Below, piece after piece: positions 34,663 to 41,877 of a stretch of 64,000 bases of DNA. Under the pieces are notes generated by a model, which made no database searches, had not been told where the DNA came from, and worked only from the letters and a program-made list of their open reading frames with translations. This DNA is from a virus. Taxonomy: Duplodnaviria; Caudoviricetes. The position numbers were made by a program, and so were the translations under genes. Positions within the stretch are counted from its first letter, which is position 1. Each line of letters begins with the position of its first letter. Location: positions 64,001-128,000 of IMG/VR virus record IMGVR_UViG_3300020577_009322; one strand, written 5' to 3'.

Positions 34663-35634
34663 ATGCCTTGTAATACAACACCTTGTGATGATAAATGTTT
34701 ACCTTATAATCCATGTTATGATGATTGTGGTTGTTTAAACCCAACTACTTTTGAGTGTGTAACAAAACCTGGAACATGGCCTGCATTAGGAATTACTAAT
34801 GATATGAATGGGGTAGAGGCTTTAGAAGCCTTAAATACCGTTATTAATAATTTAACTATAACCCCGCCATCTCCTGGATCAGACGTTTATGTTAAAGCTA
34901 CATCTGCAGATACAACTGCAAACTACCTTTCTAGTAAGTTAGTAGTTGGAGCATTTTTAACAAAAACAATAGTAAATCCGTCAGGAAATGAACAAATTCG
35001 TCTGAATGTTTCACCTGCAGCCTTGGTTTCTTCTGATTCTGGAAATATTCTAGATATAGGAACTGATGGAAAATTACGTGCTATAGTTACTGTTCCTTTA
35101 CCTGATATTTCAGTAGTTGGAGGAAGTGGTGTAACTGTTACAGGAACAGGTCCATCATCAGATCCTTTTGTTGTATCAATAAATCCATCAATAGAAGTAG
35201 TAAGAAATTGCTTTGATAATGTATGGAGAGATGTTACATTAGTTGCTACAGGAAATGCTAATGTTGTTTATGTTAGTGGAATTCCAAAATATCGTTATCG
35301 TTTTGATGGAACAATAGAATTTAAAGGATCAGCAACTTATACTGTAGCTTTTGGAGCATATTCTACAGGAAATAGAAAATATACAATAACAATTGGGAAT
35401 ATTCCAACAACATGTGTAACATCAGGTGAGCAAGCGGGAGTATCTGACCTGAAGAATATCAATTATATAGATGTACCACAAGCTGGTGCAGATCAAATAA
35501 CGCAACAATATGGGTATATTATTAGAAAATCAACAGCCAATCTAATAGTAGAATTTCAGTCTTCTTTTACCTCATCAACAAGTAAAACAATTGTTGTTAA
35601 CTTCGAGGGAGCTATATCATACCCATCTCTTTAA
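34663..35634 (+). CDS. Putative tail fibre protein
   Basis: Cys-rich N-terminus; fibre-type segments. Confidence 0.6.
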   Translation: MPCNTTPCDDKCLPYNPCYDDCGCLNPTTFECVTKPGTWPALGITNDMNGVEALEALNTVINNLTITPPSPGSDVYVKATSADTTANYLSSKLVVGAFLTKTIVNPSGNEQIRLNVSPAALVSSDSGNILDIGTDGKLRAIVTVPLPDISVVGGSGVTVTGTGPSSDPFVVSINPSIEVVRNCFDNVWRDVTLVATGNANVVYVSGIPKYRYRFDGTIEFKGSATYTVAFGAYSTGNRKYTITIGNIPTTCVTSGEQAGVSDLKNINYIDVPQAGADQITQQYGYIIRKSTANLIVEFQSSFTSSTSKTIVVNFEGAISYPSL

Positions 35635-35670
35635 AAACTCGTGGTTAGTTGGTTCTCCACAAAATGAGTT

Positions 35671-35697
35671 AACGATCCGTTTCTACGGGTCGTTTTT
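35671..35697 (+). terminator. Intrinsic terminator ending the structural operon
   Basis: aacgatccgt-ttct-acgggtcgtt-ttt. Confidence 0.8.
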
Positions 35698-35710
35698 ACT
35701 TTAAAATAAA

Positions 35711-35742
35711 TTTGGTAAATTAAAAATAAAATCGTATATTTG
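35711..35742 (+). promoter_or_regulatory. Bacteroidota-type promoter for tRNA block 1
   Basis: TTTG-N20-TATATTTG. Confidence 0.8.
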
Positions 35743-35746
35743 CACT

Positions 35747-35824
35747 ATGAAAGCAGTAGAAAAATTGTATGGCTGCGGTTGTGGTAAACCAAAACCAGTA
35801 GTGGTTAAACCACCTTCAAGATAA
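35747..35824 (+). CDS. Micropeptide MKAVEKLYGCGCGKPKPVVVKPPSR
   Basis: Directly after the promoter. Confidence 0.45.
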   Translation: MKAVEKLYGCGCGKPKPVVVKPPSR

Positions 35825-35835
35825 AAATAAAAACT

Positions 35836-35922
35836 ATGATAACAGTAAATCATGCATGGCCCATCTTTACGCAATGTCCAACAGGACAATGTGAGGGACT
35901 GTGTACGTGTATTAAGAATTAA
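35836..35922 (+). CDS. Attenuator leader peptide 1 (MITVNHAWPIFTQCPTGQCEGLCTCIKN)
   Basis: H/W/P/F/T/Q/C codons match downstream tRNAs; contains the antiterminator strand. Confidence 0.75.
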   Translation: MITVNHAWPIFTQCPTGQCEGLCTCIKN

Positions 35923-35942
35923 CTCTTAACCACAACCGAACT

Positions 35943-35970
35943 AACCCCTCCATAAAAAGAGGGGTTTTTT
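35943..35970 (+). terminator. Attenuator terminator 1
   Basis: aacccctc/gaggggtt plus T-run, 5 nt before tRNA-Pro. Confidence 0.85.
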
Positions 35971-35975
35971 ATTAT

Positions 35976-36050
35976 CTAGATGTTCCACAGTTGGTTATAT
36001 GGGCTTGCCCTGGAAGCAAGTGTTCGTCAGTTCGAATCTGACCATCTAGA
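35976..36050 (+). tRNA. trnP: tRNA-Pro(UGG)
   Basis: cttgc-ccTGGaa-gcaag; cloverleaf. Confidence 0.85.
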
Positions 36051-36053
36051 CAT

Positions 36054-36125
36054 GCTTTCTTAATAGTAATGGTAGCTACTCTGTTTTGTAATCAGAAAGT
36101 GTCAGTTCGAGTCTGACAGAAAGCT
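36054..36125 (+). tRNA. trnT: tRNA-Thr(UGU)
   Basis: tctgt-ttTGTaa-tcaga. Confidence 0.8.
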
Positions 36126-36133
36126 CTTAACTT

Positions 36134-36205
36134 GGTCCTTTGGGTGAGTGGTTTAACTATTAGTCTGCAAAACTAATTACAGCAGTTCGAATCTGCTAGG
36201 GACCT
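36134..36205 (+). tRNA. trnC: tRNA-Cys(GCA)
   Basis: ttagt-ctGCAaa-actaa. Confidence 0.9.
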
Positions 36206-36274
36206 CAAAGGCTTGTCCTTGAAACAACCTTCCCGTGGAGGGAACTGTAAGACAGTTTAAATAAGAGGATAGCT

Positions 36275-36346
36275 GGAAATATAACTCAGTTGGTAGAGTG
36301 CCAGATTGAAGATCTGGTTGCATCAGTTCGATTCTGATTATTTCCA
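36275..36346 (+). tRNA. trnF: tRNA-Phe(GAA)
   Basis: ccaga-ttGAAga-tctgg. Confidence 0.9.
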
Positions 36347-36351
36347 CATAT

Positions 36352-36423
36352 ACGTGTGTAGTGTAGTTGGTAACACAGCAGTCTCCAAAACTGTATTCAC
36401 CTGTTCGAATCGGGTCATACGTG
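36352..36423 (+). tRNA. trnW: tRNA-Trp(CCA)
   Basis: gcagt-ctCCAaa-actgt. Confidence 0.9.
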
Positions 36424-36428
36424 CTTAT

Positions 36429-36499
36429 TTTCTTGTAGTGTAATGGTAACACATGAGATTTTGGCTCTCATATTTTAGGTTCGAGTCCTAACAAGAAAA
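36429..36499 (+). tRNA. trnQ: tRNA-Gln(UUG)
   Basis: tgaga-ttTTGgc-tctca. Confidence 0.9.
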
Positions 36500-36501
36500 C
36501 T

Positions 36502-36575
36502 GGTGATTATAGCATAATGGTAGTGCAAAAGTTTGTGAAGCTTACAGGTGGGAGTTCGAATCTCCTTAGTCACCC
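36502..36575 (+). tRNA. trnH: tRNA-His(GUG)
   Basis: aaagt-ttGTGaa-gctta; G-1. Confidence 0.85.
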
Positions 36576-36581
36576 TTATAA

Positions 36582-36657
36582 ACTCCGTTAGCTAAACTGG
36601 ATACGGCACCAGAATACGAATCTGGAGATTTTGAGGGTTCGAATCCTTCACGGAGTA
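36582..36657 (+). tRNA. trnR: tRNA-Arg(ACG)
   Basis: ccaga-atACGaa-tctgg. Confidence 0.9.
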
Positions 36658-36952
36658 CAATTTTAAATAATAATTTTCCTAAAATAAAATATATACTATA
36701 TCTTTGTTCTATGATAGGAAAAATAATAAAATCAGATATGAAATCTAGGATCAGTTATAATATAACTGGTTTAGATAAGGGAATATTATTTGTTAATAAA
36801 AATACATCATCATTATCTCCAGATGGATATGAAGGAAAATGTCCACAAGGGGAACTATTTAACAATAATGGAAATAGTTGGAGATCGAGTTGTTGATAGA
36901 GGGAGACTTTCTATAGAAGTAGATGAGAATGGATATGTTACTATAAAATAAA

Positions 36953-36984
36953 TTTGGTAATTGTTAAAAATAGTTGTATATTTG
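36953..36984 (+). promoter_or_regulatory. Bacteroidota-type promoter upstream of tRNA block 2
   Basis: TTTG-N20-TATATTTG. Confidence 0.8.
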
Positions 36985-37027
36985 TGCTGCACTGACCAAG
37001 TAGGCGTGTTACTAAAAATATACAAAC

Positions 37028-37333
37028 ATGAAGAGTACAATTAGAGTGGACTTTCAGGGTCCGGAGACATCGTCTCAAAATGGTTTTGAACCAGTTATTA
37101 GAGTAAATTTAGTAGAAAGTGATGACACACGAGATAAGTTACTAAAGACATTCTTTCAGTCATTAGGTGGAGAAAGTTCCTGGCTACATGTAAAACATGT
37201 AAAAATTGATCAATCGTGTCATTCTGGATTAATTAATGATAGTATAGTAATTACTCCAGTAAAAGAGGCTGATATTGAGAACTTGAAGAAAGAGATAGAA
37301 GATAGAATAAATGATAAGAGAAATATTTTTTAA
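37028..37333 (+). CDS. Hypothetical protein
   Basis: ORF track, after the promoter. Confidence 0.7.
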   Translation: MKSTIRVDFQGPETSSQNGFEPVIRVNLVESDDTRDKLLKTFFQSLGGESSWLHVKHVKIDQSCHSGLINDSIVITPVKEADIENLKKEIEDRINDKRNIF

Positions 37334-37350
37334 ACCTTAAATATAATAAT

Positions 37351-37461
37351 ATGATAATAGGATTAATTATTAGTGGAGTAGTGGGTTTCATAGTTGGAGC
37401 CTTGGTATTTAGAAATAATGCTAAAAAGGGAGAAGAAATTATTGATAATCTTAAAAAGTAA
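37351..37461 (+). CDS. Small single-TM protein MIIGLIISGVVGFIVGALVFRNNAKKGEEIIDNLKK
   Basis: Manual translation. Confidence 0.65.
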   Translation: MIIGLIISGVVGFIVGALVFRNNAKKGEEIIDNLKK

Positions 37462-37473
37462 TAAAGACAACTA

Positions 37474-37542
37474 ATGCAACAATTTTATATGATAGTTAGA
37501 AATATTTTAGGGGCGGATGAAAAATCTGGCTCTAGGGAATAA
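37474..37542 (+). CDS. Attenuator leader peptide 2 (MQQFYMIVRNILGADEKSGSRE)
   Basis: Run M-I(ATA)-V-R(AGA)-N-I(ATT)-L-G-A-D-E-K matches block 2 tRNAs; 3' end holds the antiterminator gctctaggg. Confidence 0.8.
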   Translation: MQQFYMIVRNILGADEKSGSRE

Positions 37543-37567
37543 TTTTACTATCTTATAATAGAAAGTT

Positions 37568-37604
37568 AACCCTGGAGCATATTAAGCTTCAGGGTTTTTC
37601 TTTT
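37568..37604 (+). terminator. Attenuator terminator 2
   Basis: aaccctggagc-atattaa-gcttcagggtt plus T-run, just before tRNA-Lys. Confidence 0.88.
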
Positions 37605-37609
37605 AAAAT

Positions 37610-37684
37610 ACCTTCGTAGCAAAATGTGGCTTTGCTCCTGACTTTTAATCAGAACAAAAATGGGTTCGACTTCCTTCGAAGGTA
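37610..37684 (+). tRNA. trnK: tRNA-Lys(UUU)
   Basis: cctga-ctTTTaa-tcaga. Confidence 0.8.
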
Positions 37685-37687
37685 CTT

Positions 37688-37762
37688 GGGATCTTAGCAA
37701 AAATGATATTTCTTCAGCCTCTTAAGCTGAATAAAAGTAGAGTTCGATTCTCACAGATCCCA
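37688..37762 (+). tRNA. trnK: tRNA-Lys(CUU)
   Basis: tcagc-ctCTTaa-gctga; atypical D-arm. Confidence 0.75.
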
Positions 37763-37772
37763 CATAAGTATA

Positions 37773-37804
37773 TTTGGTGGTTCGAAAATTATTTCGTATA
37801 TTTG
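37773..37804 (+). promoter_or_regulatory. Bacteroidota-type promoter of the HNH gene
   Basis: TTTG-N20-TATATTTG. Confidence 0.75.
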
Positions 37805-37808
37805 ATAT

Positions 37809-38339
37809 ATGAAAGAAAGAATAGAACAATTAAGAAAAGAAGGAAAAAGTTATAGTGAAATATCAAAGATAACTGGATTAGTCAAATCTACAATATCATA
37901 CTATGTAGGAAATAGAACTGGAAAAGGTAAGCTAACAGCTGAAAAAAGAAATTGTAGAAATTGTGAAAAAGAAATCAGTTCTCCAAAAGTTTTCTGTGAT
38001 AAAAAATGTGATTTTGAATATAAACAGAAACTTAGGTTAGATAAATTTGAAAAAAGCAATTTGTGTACAAATAATTCTATTAGAAAAGCACTTATTTCTA
38101 TAAATGGAAATAAATGCAGTATTTGTGAAATCTCTGAAATATGGAATGATAGGAAATTAACTATGCATGTAGATCATATTGATGGAAATTCTGATAATAA
38201 TGATAATAAAAATGTTAGATTAGTATGTCCTAATTGTCATTCTCAACTAGAAACATCTAAAAATAAAGTTAAAAAACAAACAAAAAGAAATAAATACTTA
38301 AGAAAATACAAAGGTTATATAGATGCCCCTGTCGTATAG
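37809..38339 (+). CDS. HNH homing endonuclease with N-terminal HTH, inserted in the tRNA array
   Basis: HVDHIDGN..N...NVRLVCPNCHSQ. Confidence 0.9.
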   Translation: MKERIEQLRKEGKSYSEISKITGLVKSTISYYVGNRTGKGKLTAEKRNCRNCEKEISSPKVFCDKKCDFEYKQKLRLDKFEKSNLCTNNSIRKALISINGNKCSICEISEIWNDRKLTMHVDHIDGNSDNNDNKNVRLVCPNCHSQLETSKNKVKKQTKRNKYLRKYKGYIDAPVV

Positions 38340-38397
38340 TGATTTAATATCTCTCTCTTACAAAGAGAAGACGGCAGTTTGATTCTGCACAGGGGTA
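38325..38397 (+). tRNA. trnV: tRNA-Val(UAC)
   Basis: tctct-ctTACaa-agaga; overlaps HNH stop. Confidence 0.8.
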
Positions 38398-38402
38398 CAA
38401 AT

Positions 38403-38474
38403 GGTTCTATAGTGTAATGATTAGCACAACTCTCTTCTAAAGAGTTAGTATAAGTTTGACCCTTGTTAGGACTA
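38403..38474 (+). tRNA. trnR: tRNA-Arg(UCU)
   Basis: actct-ctTCTaa-agagt. Confidence 0.75.
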
Positions 38475-38514
38475 CAGATGAGTTACCCTTCTCCGTGTAT
38501 TAAAAAGGGATAAT

Positions 38515-38589
38515 GTCTGAATAGCTGAGTTGGTTTCAAGCACTTGACTGTTAATCAAGAGTAGTTGGGTTCGATCCCCAAATCAGACG
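38515..38589 (+). tRNA. trnN: tRNA-Asn(GUU)
   Basis: cttga-ctGTTaa-tcaag. Confidence 0.9.
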
Positions 38590-38595
38590 CTTTAT

Positions 38596-38666
38596 TGTGC
38601 GGTGGTGTAATGGTAGCATATTGGGCTCATAACCCAATGATGAAAGTTCGACTCTTTCCTGCGCAA
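38596..38666 (+). tRNA. trnM: tRNA-Met(CAU), initiator-like anticodon stem
   Basis: ttggg-ctCATaa-cccaa (three consecutive G:C pairs). Confidence 0.85.
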
Positions 38667-38669
38667 CTT

Positions 38670-38885
38670 ATGAAAAATTACATAGAAGATCAAATTAGAA
38701 AAGGTTACAGGGTATACGACCTTAAAGAAATACTCGGAGAAACACCAATGCAATCAGATATAGATAATTTGATTGAAAAATTAGGTCCTAATAAGTTAGG
38801 TGAAGTTGATGAAAATGGTTATCTTTACGTGAAAACAGATCAATCGTGGAGAAATATTTTAGGACAGCGGATGGAGAAATGGTGA
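38670..38885 (+). CDS. Hypothetical protein (start MKNYIEDQ)
   Basis: Track ORF N-terminus overlaps tRNAs; ATG right after tRNA-Met. Confidence 0.6.
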   Translation: MKNYIEDQIRKGYRVYDLKEILGETPMQSDIDNLIEKLGPNKLGEVDENGYLYVKTDQSWRNILGQRMEKW

Positions 38886-39319
38886 ATATAATCTCTCACT
38901 GTAGAGAAATATTAGCAAAAGAACCAGATGCTAAGATATTAATTGGAACTGACTCACAGGATGAGGATGGAAAAAGTAAGTATTGTACTGTAATAGTATT
39001 TAGATATGGATTACGTGGTGCTCACTTTATCTACAGTAAGGATGATAGGAAAAAGATAAGAGATATTTTCACTCGTTTATTTACTGAGTGTGAGTACTCA
39101 CTAGAAATTGCTGAGCATATAACTAAGAATACTAGTTATAAAGTATCAACAATAGAGTTAGATTTCAATGATTTCAAGAAGACAAAATCAACACCTTTAA
39201 TATCAGCAACAAAGGGATGGTGTGAATCTTTAGGTTACTCAGCTACTCTAAAAAGTGGTGAAATGTTTGCTTGTAAAGCAGCAGATCATATCCTAAGACA
39301 TCCATCATTATATAAATAA
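38846..39319 (+). CDS. RNase H-like YkuK (DUF458) family protein
   Basis: LIGTDSQ, RLFTE, IELDFN, CKAADH. Confidence 0.8.
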   Translation: MEKYFRTADGEMVNIISHCREILAKEPDAKILIGTDSQDEDGKSKYCTVIVFRYGLRGAHFIYSKDDRKKIRDIFTRLFTECEYSLEIAEHITKNTSYKVSTIELDFNDFKKTKSTPLISATKGWCESLGYSATLKSGEMFACKAADHILRHPSLYK

Positions 39320-39347
39320 TACTTTCAAACAAAAATAAATTTAGTAA

Positions 39348-39421
39348 GCAGTATACGCATAAATGGTGGTGCACCAGTCTTCCAAATTGGAATAGAGTCA
39401 GTTCGATCCTGACATGCTGCA
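39348..39421 (+). tRNA. trnG: tRNA-Gly(UCC)
   Basis: ccagt-ctTCCaa-attgg. Confidence 0.85.
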
Positions 39422-39483
39422 CCCTTAAGAGAGATTAAATAAAGTCTGCAGCTTTTGGCCAATATTGGTTCTCTCTTTTGCAG

Positions 39484-39555
39484 GGCCCTTTCGTCTAATG
39501 TGTAGGACGACGCTCTTTCCAAGCGTAGATTTCGGTTCGAATCCGTGAGGGGCTA
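39484..39555 (+). tRNA. trnE: tRNA-Glu(UUC)
   Basis: acgct-ctTTCca-agcgt. Confidence 0.85.
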
Positions 39556-39561
39556 CAATAA

Positions 39562-39635
39562 GGTCTATGGATGTGGCAGGGTGTGGCTACTGGATTGTCA
39601 ATCCAGGGAGACGGGTTCGATCCCCGTATAGACCG
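39562..39635 (+). tRNA. trnD: tRNA-Asp(GUC)
   Basis: ctgga-ttGTCaa-tccag. Confidence 0.85.
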
Positions 39636-39692
39636 CAACGAGGAACATGGTAATTCATGTCTGAGGCTGAAAGAAGCAATCCCCTCGTCTAT

Positions 39693-39765
39693 GCTTCTAT
39701 AGCTCAATGGTCAGAGCAGGACGCTTATATCGTCAAGGTTTCCAGTTCGAGTCTGGATAGAAGTA
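39693..39765 (+). tRNA. trnI: tRNA-Ile(UAU)
   Basis: ggacg-ctTATat-cgtca. Confidence 0.8.
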
Positions 39766-39770
39766 CATAT

Positions 39771-39843
39771 TGGAGTGTAGCTCAAATGGTAGAGCGCCTG
39801 CCTGATACGCAGGAGGTACAGGGATCGTTACCCTGCATTCCAA
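39771..39843 (+). tRNA. trnI: tRNA-Ile(GAU)
   Basis: cctgc-ctGATac-gcagg. Confidence 0.85.
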
Positions 39844-39970
39844 CGGAGTGTTACGCATAGCCTCTCAACGATGTAGCGTTTCTCCTCGGTAGCCCGTCGA
39901 CGTAATCCGAGACAGTTCATTACCTAATAAGAATGAGTTAGGGAGATATGGGAAACCTGCTCCCGATTTT

Positions 39971-40043
39971 GGGGATAAAGCTCTAGTGGATGAGCATCTG
40001 CCTTGCACGCAGAAGGTTAGGAATTCGAGTTTCCTTATCTCCA
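39971..40043 (+). tRNA. trnA: tRNA-Ala(UGC)
   Basis: tctgc-ctTGCac-gcaga; G3:U70. Confidence 0.9.
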
Positions 40044-40089
40044 CAAATAAATTTGGTAAATATAAATATTTGTAGTATTATATAATATA

Positions 40090-40161
40090 ATGAAGAAACT
40101 ATATACATATTATTCGTTAAGTCTCTTGTCCTTAAATGGACTAGCTAGGAATACTATGTGA
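40090..40161 (+). CDS. Attenuator leader peptide 3 (MKKLYTYYSLSLLSLNGLARNTM)
   Basis: 11 of 12 consecutive codons are Leu/Tyr/Ser, matching block 3 tRNAs; contains the antiterminator agctagga. Confidence 0.8.
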   Translation: MKKLYTYYSLSLLSLNGLARNTM

Positions 40162-40192
40162 TAACAGTGGGCAATCGTTAGATCATTCGTGT

Positions 40193-40223
40193 AAATCCTG
40201 GCTTTAATTAGTCAGGATTTTTT
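40193..40223 (+). terminator. Attenuator terminator 3
   Basis: aaatcctggct-ttaatt-agtcaggattt plus T-run, just before tRNA-Leu. Confidence 0.88.
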
Positions 40224-40227
40224 ATTT

Positions 40228-40301
40228 GTGGGTATGGCGGAATTGGAATACGCAACAGGTTTAGACCCTGAAATTTAAGAGTTCGAGTCTCTTTACCCAT
40301 A
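40228..40301 (+). tRNA. trnL: tRNA-Leu(UAG), short variable arm
   Basis: acagg-ttTAGac-cctga. Confidence 0.85.
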
Positions 40302-40307
40302 CTATAT

Positions 40308-40381
40308 GTCCTTGTGATGGAATTGGAATACATGTCAGACTTAAAATCTGAATTTTACGGGTTCGAGTCCCGTCTTGGACA
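40308..40381 (+). tRNA. trnL: tRNA-Leu(UAA), short variable arm
   Basis: tcaga-ctTAAaa-tctga. Confidence 0.85.
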
Positions 40382-40386
40382 CATAA

Positions 40387-40469
40387 GGAAGAGCGCATTG
40401 TGAGAGCTTATCCGTCCTGAAAACGGTGAAGGTGTAATAGCTGTGAGAGTTCGATTCTCTCCTCTTCCG
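40387..40469 (+). tRNA. trnS: tRNA-Ser(UGA)
   Basis: tccgt-ccTGAaa-acggt; long variable arm; atypical D-arm. Confidence 0.8.
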
Positions 40470-40474
40470 CTTAT

Positions 40475-40557
40475 AGAGAAATGACAGAGTGGTAATGTAG
40501 CAGTTTGCTAAACTGTAGATGGTAACACATCCGTGAGTTCGATCCTCACTTTCTCTG
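40475..40557 (+). tRNA. trnS: tRNA-Ser(GCU)
   Basis: gcagt-ttGCTaa-actgt; long variable arm. Confidence 0.9.
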
Positions 40558-40562
40558 CAGAT

Positions 40563-40646
40563 GGGTATGATGGTAAATGTGGTTAAATCAGGAGACTGTA
40601 AATCTCTCGTCATTAGACTGTTGGAGTTCGATTCTGTACATACCCA
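40563..40646 (+). tRNA. trnY: tRNA-Tyr(GUA)
   Basis: ggaga-ctGTAaa-tctct. Confidence 0.9.
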
Positions 40647-40662
40647 CAATTATTTTTTTATT

Positions 40663-40706
40663 TAAATGGAGTCTTGTACCTTTGTTGGGCTAAGACTCCA
40701 TTTTTT
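40663..40706 (+). terminator. Terminator ending the tRNA array
   Basis: aaatggagtctt/aagactccattt plus T-run. Confidence 0.8.
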
Positions 40707-40853
40707 GTTCAGGCAGGAGGATACACTATGAAAATAGTGCTACTACGTCTAAGGATGCTTATGTCCCCTAAGTAGATTGGGAGGGGGCTGGGGGGTGGGT
40801 CAGAAAATAAATTAAAAATAAATTTCGCTATATCAAATATTCATTGTAACTTT

Positions 40854-41036
40854 GTGGAAACAAAACAGAAAAATATGACAAAGAAAATTACAGAACACTT
40901 GAAAAGAAACAACAGTTATTTTAAATGGTCAGCTAAAAGATTAGCAGATAAGTTTGGTTGTTCAGAAAGAACTATCACAAATATTATCAAGACTCTTGCA
41001 CCAGTTAAGAGAACTTATTTAAATAACTTAAAGTAA
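40854..41036 (+). CDS. Small HTH protein
   Basis: SAKRLADKFGCSERTI. Confidence 0.7.
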   Translation: METKQKNMTKKITEHLKRNNSYFKWSAKRLADKFGCSERTITNIIKTLAPVKRTYLNNLK

Positions 41037-41040
41037 GAGA

Positions 41041-41877
41041 ATGTTTAAGAAGGAAATAGAAGCTTTTTTACTAGAAAAAAGAGGATACTTGAAGAAGTCA
41101 CCTTTACATGTGGCTAAAGCTATATGGAAATCTTCAATAAAACACAGTAAACCAAAGACTCAAGCAGATGTAGAGAAAGAATTAGAGGTAATCAAGGATG
41201 TTCAGGCCACAATGAGACTAGTAACTGTCCATCCACAGGATTCTGCAGATAACAGTATTTTGGAAGCTTACGAAAAGATAGTAGCTGAGAAAAATCGTCC
41301 AAGAAAAAAGTTATTCTTTGATCTAGAAGTATCAGCTAATATCGTATTCTCTTGGAGAATTGGTAAGGATGTAGATCTATCACCAGATAGTATTATTCAG
41401 GAACGAGCTATTATATGTGCTTGTTATAAGTGGGAAGGAGATGATAGAGTTTATTCTCTAAAGTGGAATAAAGGTGATGATAAAGATTTATTAGAAAAAT
41501 TCTCAAAAATTATAGATTCAGCAGATGAGGTAGTTACCCAAAATGGGGATGCATTTGATATTAAGTGGTTAAGAACACGCTGTATCTATCATGGAATTCC
41601 AGTATCACCAAAGTTCAATTCAATTGATACTTTAAAAATGGCCAGAAGTGGGTTTAAATTTAACTCCAATAAATTAGATTATATGGGAAAGTTTCTGTCA
41701 CTTGGACAGAAAATAAAGACAGAATATAATTTATGGAAGGATATTACCTTAAATAACAGTAAGGTGGCTATGGATAAGATGGTTGAGTATTGCAAACAAG
41801 ATGTTACACTGTTAGAACAGGTATATCAAAAATTACAGGCTTTCTCACCAGTTAAGAAGTTCAAATACAAACTGTAA
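41041..41877 (+). CDS. RNase H-like (DEDD) 3'-5' exonuclease
   Basis: FFDLE, QNGDAFDIKW, IDTL, YCKQDV. Confidence 0.85.
   Translation: MFKKEIEAFLLEKRGYLKKSPLHVAKAIWKSSIKHSKPKTQADVEKELEVIKDVQATMRLVTVHPQDSADNSILEAYEKIVAEKNRPRKKLFFDLEVSANIVFSWRIGKDVDLSPDSIIQERAIICACYKWEGDDRVYSLKWNKGDDKDLLEKFSKIIDSADEVVTQNGDAFDIKWLRTRCIYHGIPVSPKFNSIDTLKMARSGFKFNSNKLDYMGKFLSLGQKIKTEYNLWKDITLNNSKVAMDKMVEYCKQDVTLLEQVYQKLQAFSPVKKFKYKL

Follow-up and report, generated by a model that had tools for sequence, protein, structure and literature searches.

A small open reading frame (ORF) followed by a strong hairpin lies directly ahead of the Leu/Ser/Tyr block of a phage tRNA cluster, which raises the question of whether the tRNA genes themselves are under the control of a leader peptide. 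The virus record to which the locus belongs is 155,463 bp long and has direct terminal repeats; its bases 64001-128000 were analysed (hereafter the window, 64,000 nt with a G+C content of ~30-37%). ARAGORN identified 24 tRNAs in a cluster on the + strand at 35976-40647, and the 183-nt spacer between tRNA-Ala (end 40044) and tRNA-Leu(UAG) (start 40228) contains the whole leader element (Table 1). The regulated block, 40228-40647, consists of five tRNA genes only, without genes for amino-acid biosynthesis, transport or aminoacyl-tRNA synthetases. The role of phage tRNA genes has long been debated, the proposals being that they provide codon compensation, stand in for host tRNAs that decay, or allow escape from defences that target tRNAs (e.g. 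PMC10264068). A preliminary description of this DNA had proposed an attenuator, and this reading is supported by the leader ORF, the run of cognate codons, the abutting terminator, the mutually exclusive antiterminator, the spacing, recurrence in 14/14 homologous cassettes and covariation. We consider it very likely that the element is a ribosome-mediated (leader-peptide) transcription attenuator controlling the five-gene tRNA operon Leu-UAG, Leu-UAA, Ser-UGA, Ser-GCU, Tyr-GUA.

Table 1. Features of the leader element, the downstream tRNA block and the two sister leaders (window coordinates).
Feature	Position	Strand	Basis
Sister leader 1	35836-35922		Composition and architecture; terminator-like hairpin 35943-35966
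Sister leader 2	37474-37542		Composition and architecture; terminator-like hairpin 37568-37596
Promoter-like site: -35 TTGGTA (40053-40058), 17-nt spacer, -10 TATTAT (40076-40081)	40053-40081	+	Sequence scan
Leader ORF, 23 codons: ATG 40090, TGA 40159-40161	40090-40161	+	ORF translation; homologous short ORFs in 13 other cassettes
Control-codon run, codons 4-15, peptide LYTYYSLSLLSL	40099-40134	+	Codon content
Hairpin 1:2, candidate anti-antiterminator: control-codon strand with antiterminator-arm strand	40100-40163	+	Full-length MFE folds
Antiterminator hairpin 2:3: arm 40143-40154 with 40189-40203 (including the terminator 5' arm TCCTGGCT)	40143-40203	+	Folding, covariation
Intrinsic terminator: stem 40193-40203/40210-40220, loop TTAATT, T tract to 40227	40193-40227	+	Terminator scan, -15.5 kcal/mol
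tRNA-Leu(UAG)	40228-40302	+	ARAGORN
tRNA-Leu(UAA)	40308-40382	+	ARAGORN
tRNA-Ser(UGA)-like	~40387-40468	+	ARAGORN, relaxed threshold only
tRNA-Ser(GCU)	40475-40558	+	ARAGORN
tRNA-Tyr(GUA)	40563-40647	+	ARAGORN
Hairpin and T tract closing the unit behind tRNA-Tyr	40666-40706	+	Read from sequence

The leader ORF is translatable and, as far as can be judged from its sequence, presumably translated. Codons 4-15 read CTA TAT ACA TAT TAT TCG TTA AGT CTC TTG TCC TTA, an exact match, in place and in content, to the twelve codons that had been quoted in the preliminary description. Eleven of the twelve specify Leu, Ser or Tyr, the exception being ACA (Thr). Leu is represented by the CTN (CTA, CTC) and TTR (TTA, TTG) boxes, Ser by the TCN (TCG, TCC) and AGY (AGT) boxes, and Tyr by three TAT codons. 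At the Leu/Ser/Tyr frequency of 0.193 in the proteome of the window, the binomial probability of 11/12 is 1.4e-7. Small ORFs as such are common, the two strands of the window containing 551 that start with ATG and have 12-60 codons, and the element might be a chance co-occurrence of one of these with a hairpin in an AT-rich spacer. However, only 2 of the 551 reach the observed composition, and the design recurs, with covariation, in all 14 cassettes compared below, which makes coincidence extremely improbable.

The twelve codons had also been said to mirror the five tRNAs encoded downstream. This holds for Tyr and for the two boxes each of Leu and Ser, but the match is imperfect in that the non-cognate ACA is served by block 1, and in that CTC and TCC can be read by the encoded UAG and UGA tRNAs only via U34:C wobble. 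The five tRNA genes themselves are in place, four being detected with default ARAGORN settings. The tRNA-Ser(UGA)-like gene (40387-40468), which the default settings miss, has a reduced D arm, and its top Rfam match is the tRNA-Sec model at 24.8 bits, under the cut-off; same-place counterparts of this gene are present in the related cassettes G001, L105 and L106.

The hairpin at the end of the spacer was found independently by a terminator scan and has a stem of 11 pairs, with tRNA-Leu beginning at 40228. The scanned region contains 11 terminator-like sites, compared with 3.0 +/- 1.9 in shuffled sequences. Antiterminator hairpin 2:3 (-17.0 kcal/mol) sequesters 8 of the 11 nt of the terminator 5' arm, and its upstream arm, 40143-40154, lies within the final codons of the leader ORF. 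As previously described, AGCTAGGA (40143-40150) and TCCTGGCT (40196-40203) pair at 8/8 positions, with one G:U. RNAduplex, used to find the segment that pairs best with the terminator 5' arm, likewise picked AGCTAGGA, at -12.3 kcal/mol against a mean of -7.0 kcal/mol (p=0.014; the null for the window being 500 dinucleotide shuffles), and the inner pairing of the long hairpin, also part of the earlier proposal, was reproduced in the nascent-RNA fold. The candidate hairpin 1:2 has a CATA/TATG core that is kept in most relatives without covariation, and the MFE structure of the ribosome-free nascent RNA retains the antiterminator. The fold of the whole spacer is moderately better than that of shuffles (z = -1.9). 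A search of viral contigs for the exact terminator sequence gave 0 matches.

Related cassettes were collected by means of an RNaseH-like protein (PF04308; alignments A3 and A4), which is encoded inside the tRNA cluster and is unrelated to the leaders. Since this protein served as the anchor, the cassettes were sampled blind to leader content. Viral and metagenome contigs were scanned with the RNaseH-like alignment, yielding matches 37-53% identical to the protein of the window; the 157-aa protein was effective only in the form of an alignment, and as a single query against viral contigs it gave no confirmed relative. The comparison set consists of 14 distinct cassettes in which the beginning of the tRNA-Leu block is covered, namely that of the window and 13 others, which are homologous and do not represent 14 independent inventions. 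One of the 14, reached via a blastn match on two tRNA-Leu genes, comes from the cultured Leptolyngbya phage Lbo-JY46 (PP438436.1). In Lbo-JY46, tRNA-Leu is preceded by a homologous short ORF, again with a Tyr/Ser/Leu core, and immediately by a terminator; ahead of the Pro/Thr/Phe/Gln/His block of this phage there is another ORF, in which Thr, Arg, Gln, His, Phe, Trp and Pro are frequent.

Other routes to relatives were tried and rejected. The downstream exonuclease gene (41041-41877) led to 80 loci at <=59% identity, but tRNA genes were found nearby in 0 of the 50 scanned, and these relatives were therefore uninformative. A degenerate DNA pattern for the leader start matched unrelated ORFs in 16 of 17 cases. 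When the cluster was compared with phage records by blastn, mostly single-tRNA matches were obtained; Escherichia phage 4MG, found in this way, has a tRNA cluster in a different order. The huge uncultured phage LR756501 possesses the RNaseH-like gene, with no comparable tRNA blocks within 6 kb.

In all 14 cassettes, a short ORF with a Tyr/Ser/Leu core is accompanied by a strong hairpin and T tract (-15 to -24 kcal/mol) that ends <10 nt 5' of tRNA-Leu. Tyr, Ser and Leu make up 139 of the 140 residues of the leader cores. The order of these residues is shuffled among the cassettes, and we observed no change of Leu to Ile, Val, Met or Phe, of Ser to Thr or Ala, or of Tyr to Phe. Every leader contains codons from both Leu boxes and both Ser boxes, and TAT for Tyr. 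The match to the tRNAs is again imperfect in relatives that possess tRNA-Leu(CAA), the leaders of which are without TTG. The peptide tails have diverged, except where they encode the RNA motif (GCTGG-type) of the antiterminator arm. Because the alphabet is strict while the residue order varies, the pattern fits selection on which tRNAs are read, not on peptide chemistry. A functional micropeptide combined with an ordinary terminator, the tRNAs arising from leaky read-through, would account for a conserved ORF behind its own promoter. It is at odds, however, with the shuffled order, the diverged tails and the absence of conservative substitutions, with a gap of 0-7 nt between terminator and tRNA that leaves no space for a promoter, and with the covariation between the terminator and a segment within the ORF. 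A micropeptide is on these grounds a very improbable explanation.

The position of the promoter-like site is also maintained in most cassettes. In the window, the leader ATG is 8 nt downstream of the -10 TATTAT. A TTGGNN-N17-TANNTT box is found at a distance of 6-9 nt from the ATG in 9 of the 14 leaders (window included), and 2 more have it 18-19 nt 5' of the ATG. The same type of box precedes the block-1 unit, at 35712-35740. Since the box is so close to the ATG, both here and in the relatives, the leader mRNA is probably leaderless or nearly so. Read-through out of block 2 may add to block-3 transcription, because there is no terminator between tRNA-Ala and the unit. An extended form of the box, TTTGGTA-N-GTATATTTG, is repeated ahead of small cluster genes (35711-35742, 36953-36984 and 37773-37804). 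Over the whole window, a looser pattern, TTTG-N17-23-TANNTTTG, was without enrichment, 8 matches being found where 4.6 would be expected. tRNAs with a CUA anticodon, of the amber-suppressor type, occur in related cassettes and in a huge uncultured phage (L106:8056-8128, L115 near 5439 and L083:11473-11626); those of L106 and L115 stand behind their own TTTGG...TATATTTG-type promoter box and not behind a leader.

We also compared the competing helices among the 14 cassettes. In each of them the best partner of the terminator 5' arm occupies the homologous place, 5-10 nt behind the control run. The antiterminator arm begins 8-24 nt 5' of the stop codon in 13 cassettes, and in L106, which has a shorter ORF, 6 nt past it. 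This pairing beats dinucleotide shuffles at p <= 0.022 in 10 of the 14. Both sides of the helix vary jointly, the pairs being AGCTAGGA/TCCTGGCT in the window, GAGCTGGG/CCCAGCTC in L104, GCAGGG/CCCTGC in L107 and GCCGGG/CCCGGT in L106. At the six central antiterminator pairs of alignment A5, 83% of the cells are paired, and sliding the partner by 1-3 columns lowers this value to 28-48%. Changes on both sides are seen at three of the six pairs, with a covariation score of 0.32 versus <=0.10 in the slid controls. The unpaired cells belong to three misaligned rows (G001, Lbo-JY46 and L122), each of which has its own shifted complement. Loop lengths in the terminator helix shift the MAFFT columns, and the covariation count covers the antiterminator helix.

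When the nascent RNA was folded with a ribosome placed in the control run, beginning 14 nt beyond the ribosome and ending at the terminator loop, the antiterminator formed in 14/14 cassettes, and addition of the terminator 3' arm made the terminator the stable state. An antiterminator that forms first, followed by the terminator once the 3' arm has been added, is the usual kinetic arrangement of attenuators. For a ribosome footprint of the generally assumed size, the antiterminator arm of these cassettes would be masked once the ribosome has reached the stop codon, and would be left free by a ribosome stalled in the control run.

The ability of the alternative folds to form without a ribosome, together with the conservation of the antiterminator motif (GCTGG-type) and an ACTATG tail at the RNA level, would also suit an RNA element that is independent of translation. 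Such an element would be a terminator, or a hairpin for processing, that can fold in another way and may bind a protein or a tRNA, the ORF being incidental. Yet the reading frame, the promoter-adjacent ATG and a stop near the antiterminator arm are kept in 14/14 cassettes, and RNA pairing does not explain the codon-wise shuffling within three amino acids. In addition, an Rfam cmscan of 35500-41200 at E <= 1 returned only tRNA-type matches and chance matches to plastid UTRs, with none in 40045-40227, and the T-box covariance model was without a match in the spacer at this threshold. We regard a translation-independent element as distinctly unlikely.

The presumed leader-peptide attenuator is not the only one of its kind in the cluster. 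Two sister leaders have the same attenuator architecture as the block-3 leader and different amino-acid alphabets. The leader of the Pro/Thr/Cys/Phe/Trp/Gln/His/Arg block has 10/12 own-block residues, covering 7/8 distinct amino acids, and the leader of the Lys-to-Ala block has 11/12, covering 10/10. Each of the three window leaders ranks top for its own block (10, 11 and 11 of 12) and scores 1-6 for the other blocks. Jointly, the three tRNA blocks cover all 20 amino acids. The order of the blocks is B1-B2-B3 in the window and B2-B3-B1 in G001 and Lbo-JY46, each leader therefore moving together with its own block. A similar correspondence is seen for Cys. Cassettes with tRNA-Cys in the Pro block (window, L104, L106, L110, L115 and L122) have 4-5 Cys codons in the leader of that block and none in the leader of the Lys block, and the reverse codon pattern accompanies tRNA-Cys in the Lys block (G001, Lbo-JY46, L105 and L112); L124 is the one exception to this rule. 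As each arrangement corresponds to one of two clades, the relocation of Cys may have been a single event.

Directly behind the promoter and 5' of leader 1 there is a second mini-ORF, which contains a Gly/Cys run of the GCGCG type (window 35747-35824; L104:2368-2430; L106:3904-3951). Elsewhere, the Gly/Cys motif forms the C-terminal end of leader 2 (G001, Lbo-JY46 and L124) or of leader 1 (L112). It could act as a peptide signal, an RNA motif or a Gly/Cys sensor.

The correspondence between leaders and blocks bears on what the attenuator reads. The same hardware might respond to general translation capacity or to the timing of infection (host shut-off, ribosome availability) and not to the specific supply of Leu, Ser and Tyr tRNAs, as the mechanism requires only a slow ribosome. 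Such a sensor would accommodate the Lys codons with which the leader begins, the non-cognate codons of its tail, and the Tyr codons that are kept in the leaders of relatives without a tRNA-Tyr seen in the block (Lbo-JY46, L105/L111). It gives no reason, however, for a strict Tyr/Ser/Leu alphabet across 140 core residues, nor for three complementary alphabets that track their blocks, the relocation of Cys included, and we think it unlikely.

Several further features of the cluster were noted. tRNA-Leu(UAA) (40308-40382) is near-identical to copies in Lbo-JY46 and in an 83-kb IMG/VR contig (L082:2590-2664, L102:3889-3962), whereas the adjacent tRNA-Leu(UAG) and the spacers have diverged far more. 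This suggests either a very strong constraint or a recent exchange. HNH homing-endonuclease genes are inserted at differing sites within the tRNA clusters (window 37809-38339; L104, L105, L107, L114, L118, L119 and L121), and some insertions split a block behind its first tRNAs, for example behind tRNA-Leu(UAG) in L119 and L121. Four inter-tRNA spacers of 56-126 nt are richer in G+C (36207-36274, 39424-39483, 39637-39692 and 39845-39970), and the last of these has look-alikes 5' of tRNA-Ala in L112, L115 and L123. Rfam gave no match to these spacers, which are candidate tRNA-processing elements, e.g. tRNA-associated theta ribozymes (PMC10879173).

The proposed attenuator would couple leader translation to transcription, and we infer its signal, in kind and in direction, to be as follows. 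RNA polymerase would initiate at TTGGTA/TATTAT, and a ribosome would load on the near-leaderless AUG. With an ample supply of charged tRNAs for Leu, Ser and Tyr, the ribosome would reach the stop codon at 40159 and cover the antiterminator arm (40143-40154). With the arm covered, the terminator (40193-40220) would form and transcription would end one base short of tRNA-Leu. If any of the Leu, Ser or Tyr tRNAs is scarce, be it through poor host supply for the codon usage of the phage, through decay of host tRNAs during infection or through a tRNA-cleaving defence, the ribosome would stall on the control codons (40099-40134). This would leave the antiterminator arm, 7-8 nt beyond the control run, free to pair with the emerging terminator 5' arm, giving read-through and production of the phage tRNAs. 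The new tRNAs would in turn relieve the stall, closing a negative-feedback loop.

Taken as a whole, the cluster may exert closed-loop control over the phage tRNA supply. According to this model, which we consider likely, a portable cassette (promoter, leaderless codon-checklist ORF, attenuator and tRNA block) would sense slow decoding of exactly the codon families of its own tRNAs and switch these tRNAs on, three such cassettes would cover all 20 amino acids, and the cassettes would be shared with, and reshuffled as units among, very divergent phages, including a cultured cyanophage. If so, the phage gauges decoding speed separately for each codon family and produces tRNAs as they are needed, and such a sensor would also answer host defences that cleave tRNAs. 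Leader-peptide attenuation would thereby be extended from enzymes to the decoders themselves. The element would offer a direct, mutable reporter of tRNA sufficiency in infected cells, and a cultured system is at hand in Leptolyngbya phage Lbo-JY46 (PP438436.1), along with a dozen natural variants.

Full-text searches of the literature returned studies of phage tRNAs in codon compensation and defence evasion, and of attenuators of amino-acid, synthetase and resistance genes, but no leader-peptide control of tRNA genes. Among the amino-acid operons of enterobacteria, multivalent leaders are well known, with Leu, Val and Ile codons in ilvGMEDA and Thr and Ile codons in thr, and the leader of leu has four Leu codons. 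Like these attenuators, the phage element combines a short ORF, with control codons for more than one amino acid, and an overlapping terminator and antiterminator, and in the phage, too, the position of the ribosome would set the fold. There is no sequence similarity between the enterobacterial leaders and the phage leader, and no match to an Rfam leader family. The phage element differs further in that it would control tRNA genes in place of biosynthetic enzymes, so that the sensible signal is the supply of the decoders themselves, and in that no isoacceptor family of the operon is missing from its control run. Its mRNA is probably leaderless, and, unlike its enterobacterial counterparts, the element resides in a phage and moves together with its tRNA block.

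Two other systems come closer to the decoding machinery. The pheM leader of E. coli pheST (Phe-tRNA synthetase) is chromosomal and controls a protein in response to one amino acid. As with pheM, leader-peptide attenuation would act in the phage on a component of the decoding machinery and not on a biosynthetic pathway, but the phage product is the tRNAs of three amino acids. In T-box riboswitches, as presumably in the phage element, the choice between terminator and antiterminator depends on tRNA status. These riboswitches differ from the phage element in binding uncharged tRNA directly, without an ORF, and in controlling synthetase and amino-acid genes, whereas the phage element has a conserved ORF. 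The hardware is that of a known attenuator, and it is the regulated product, together with the codon checklist that mirrors it, that is new as far as the full-text searches show.
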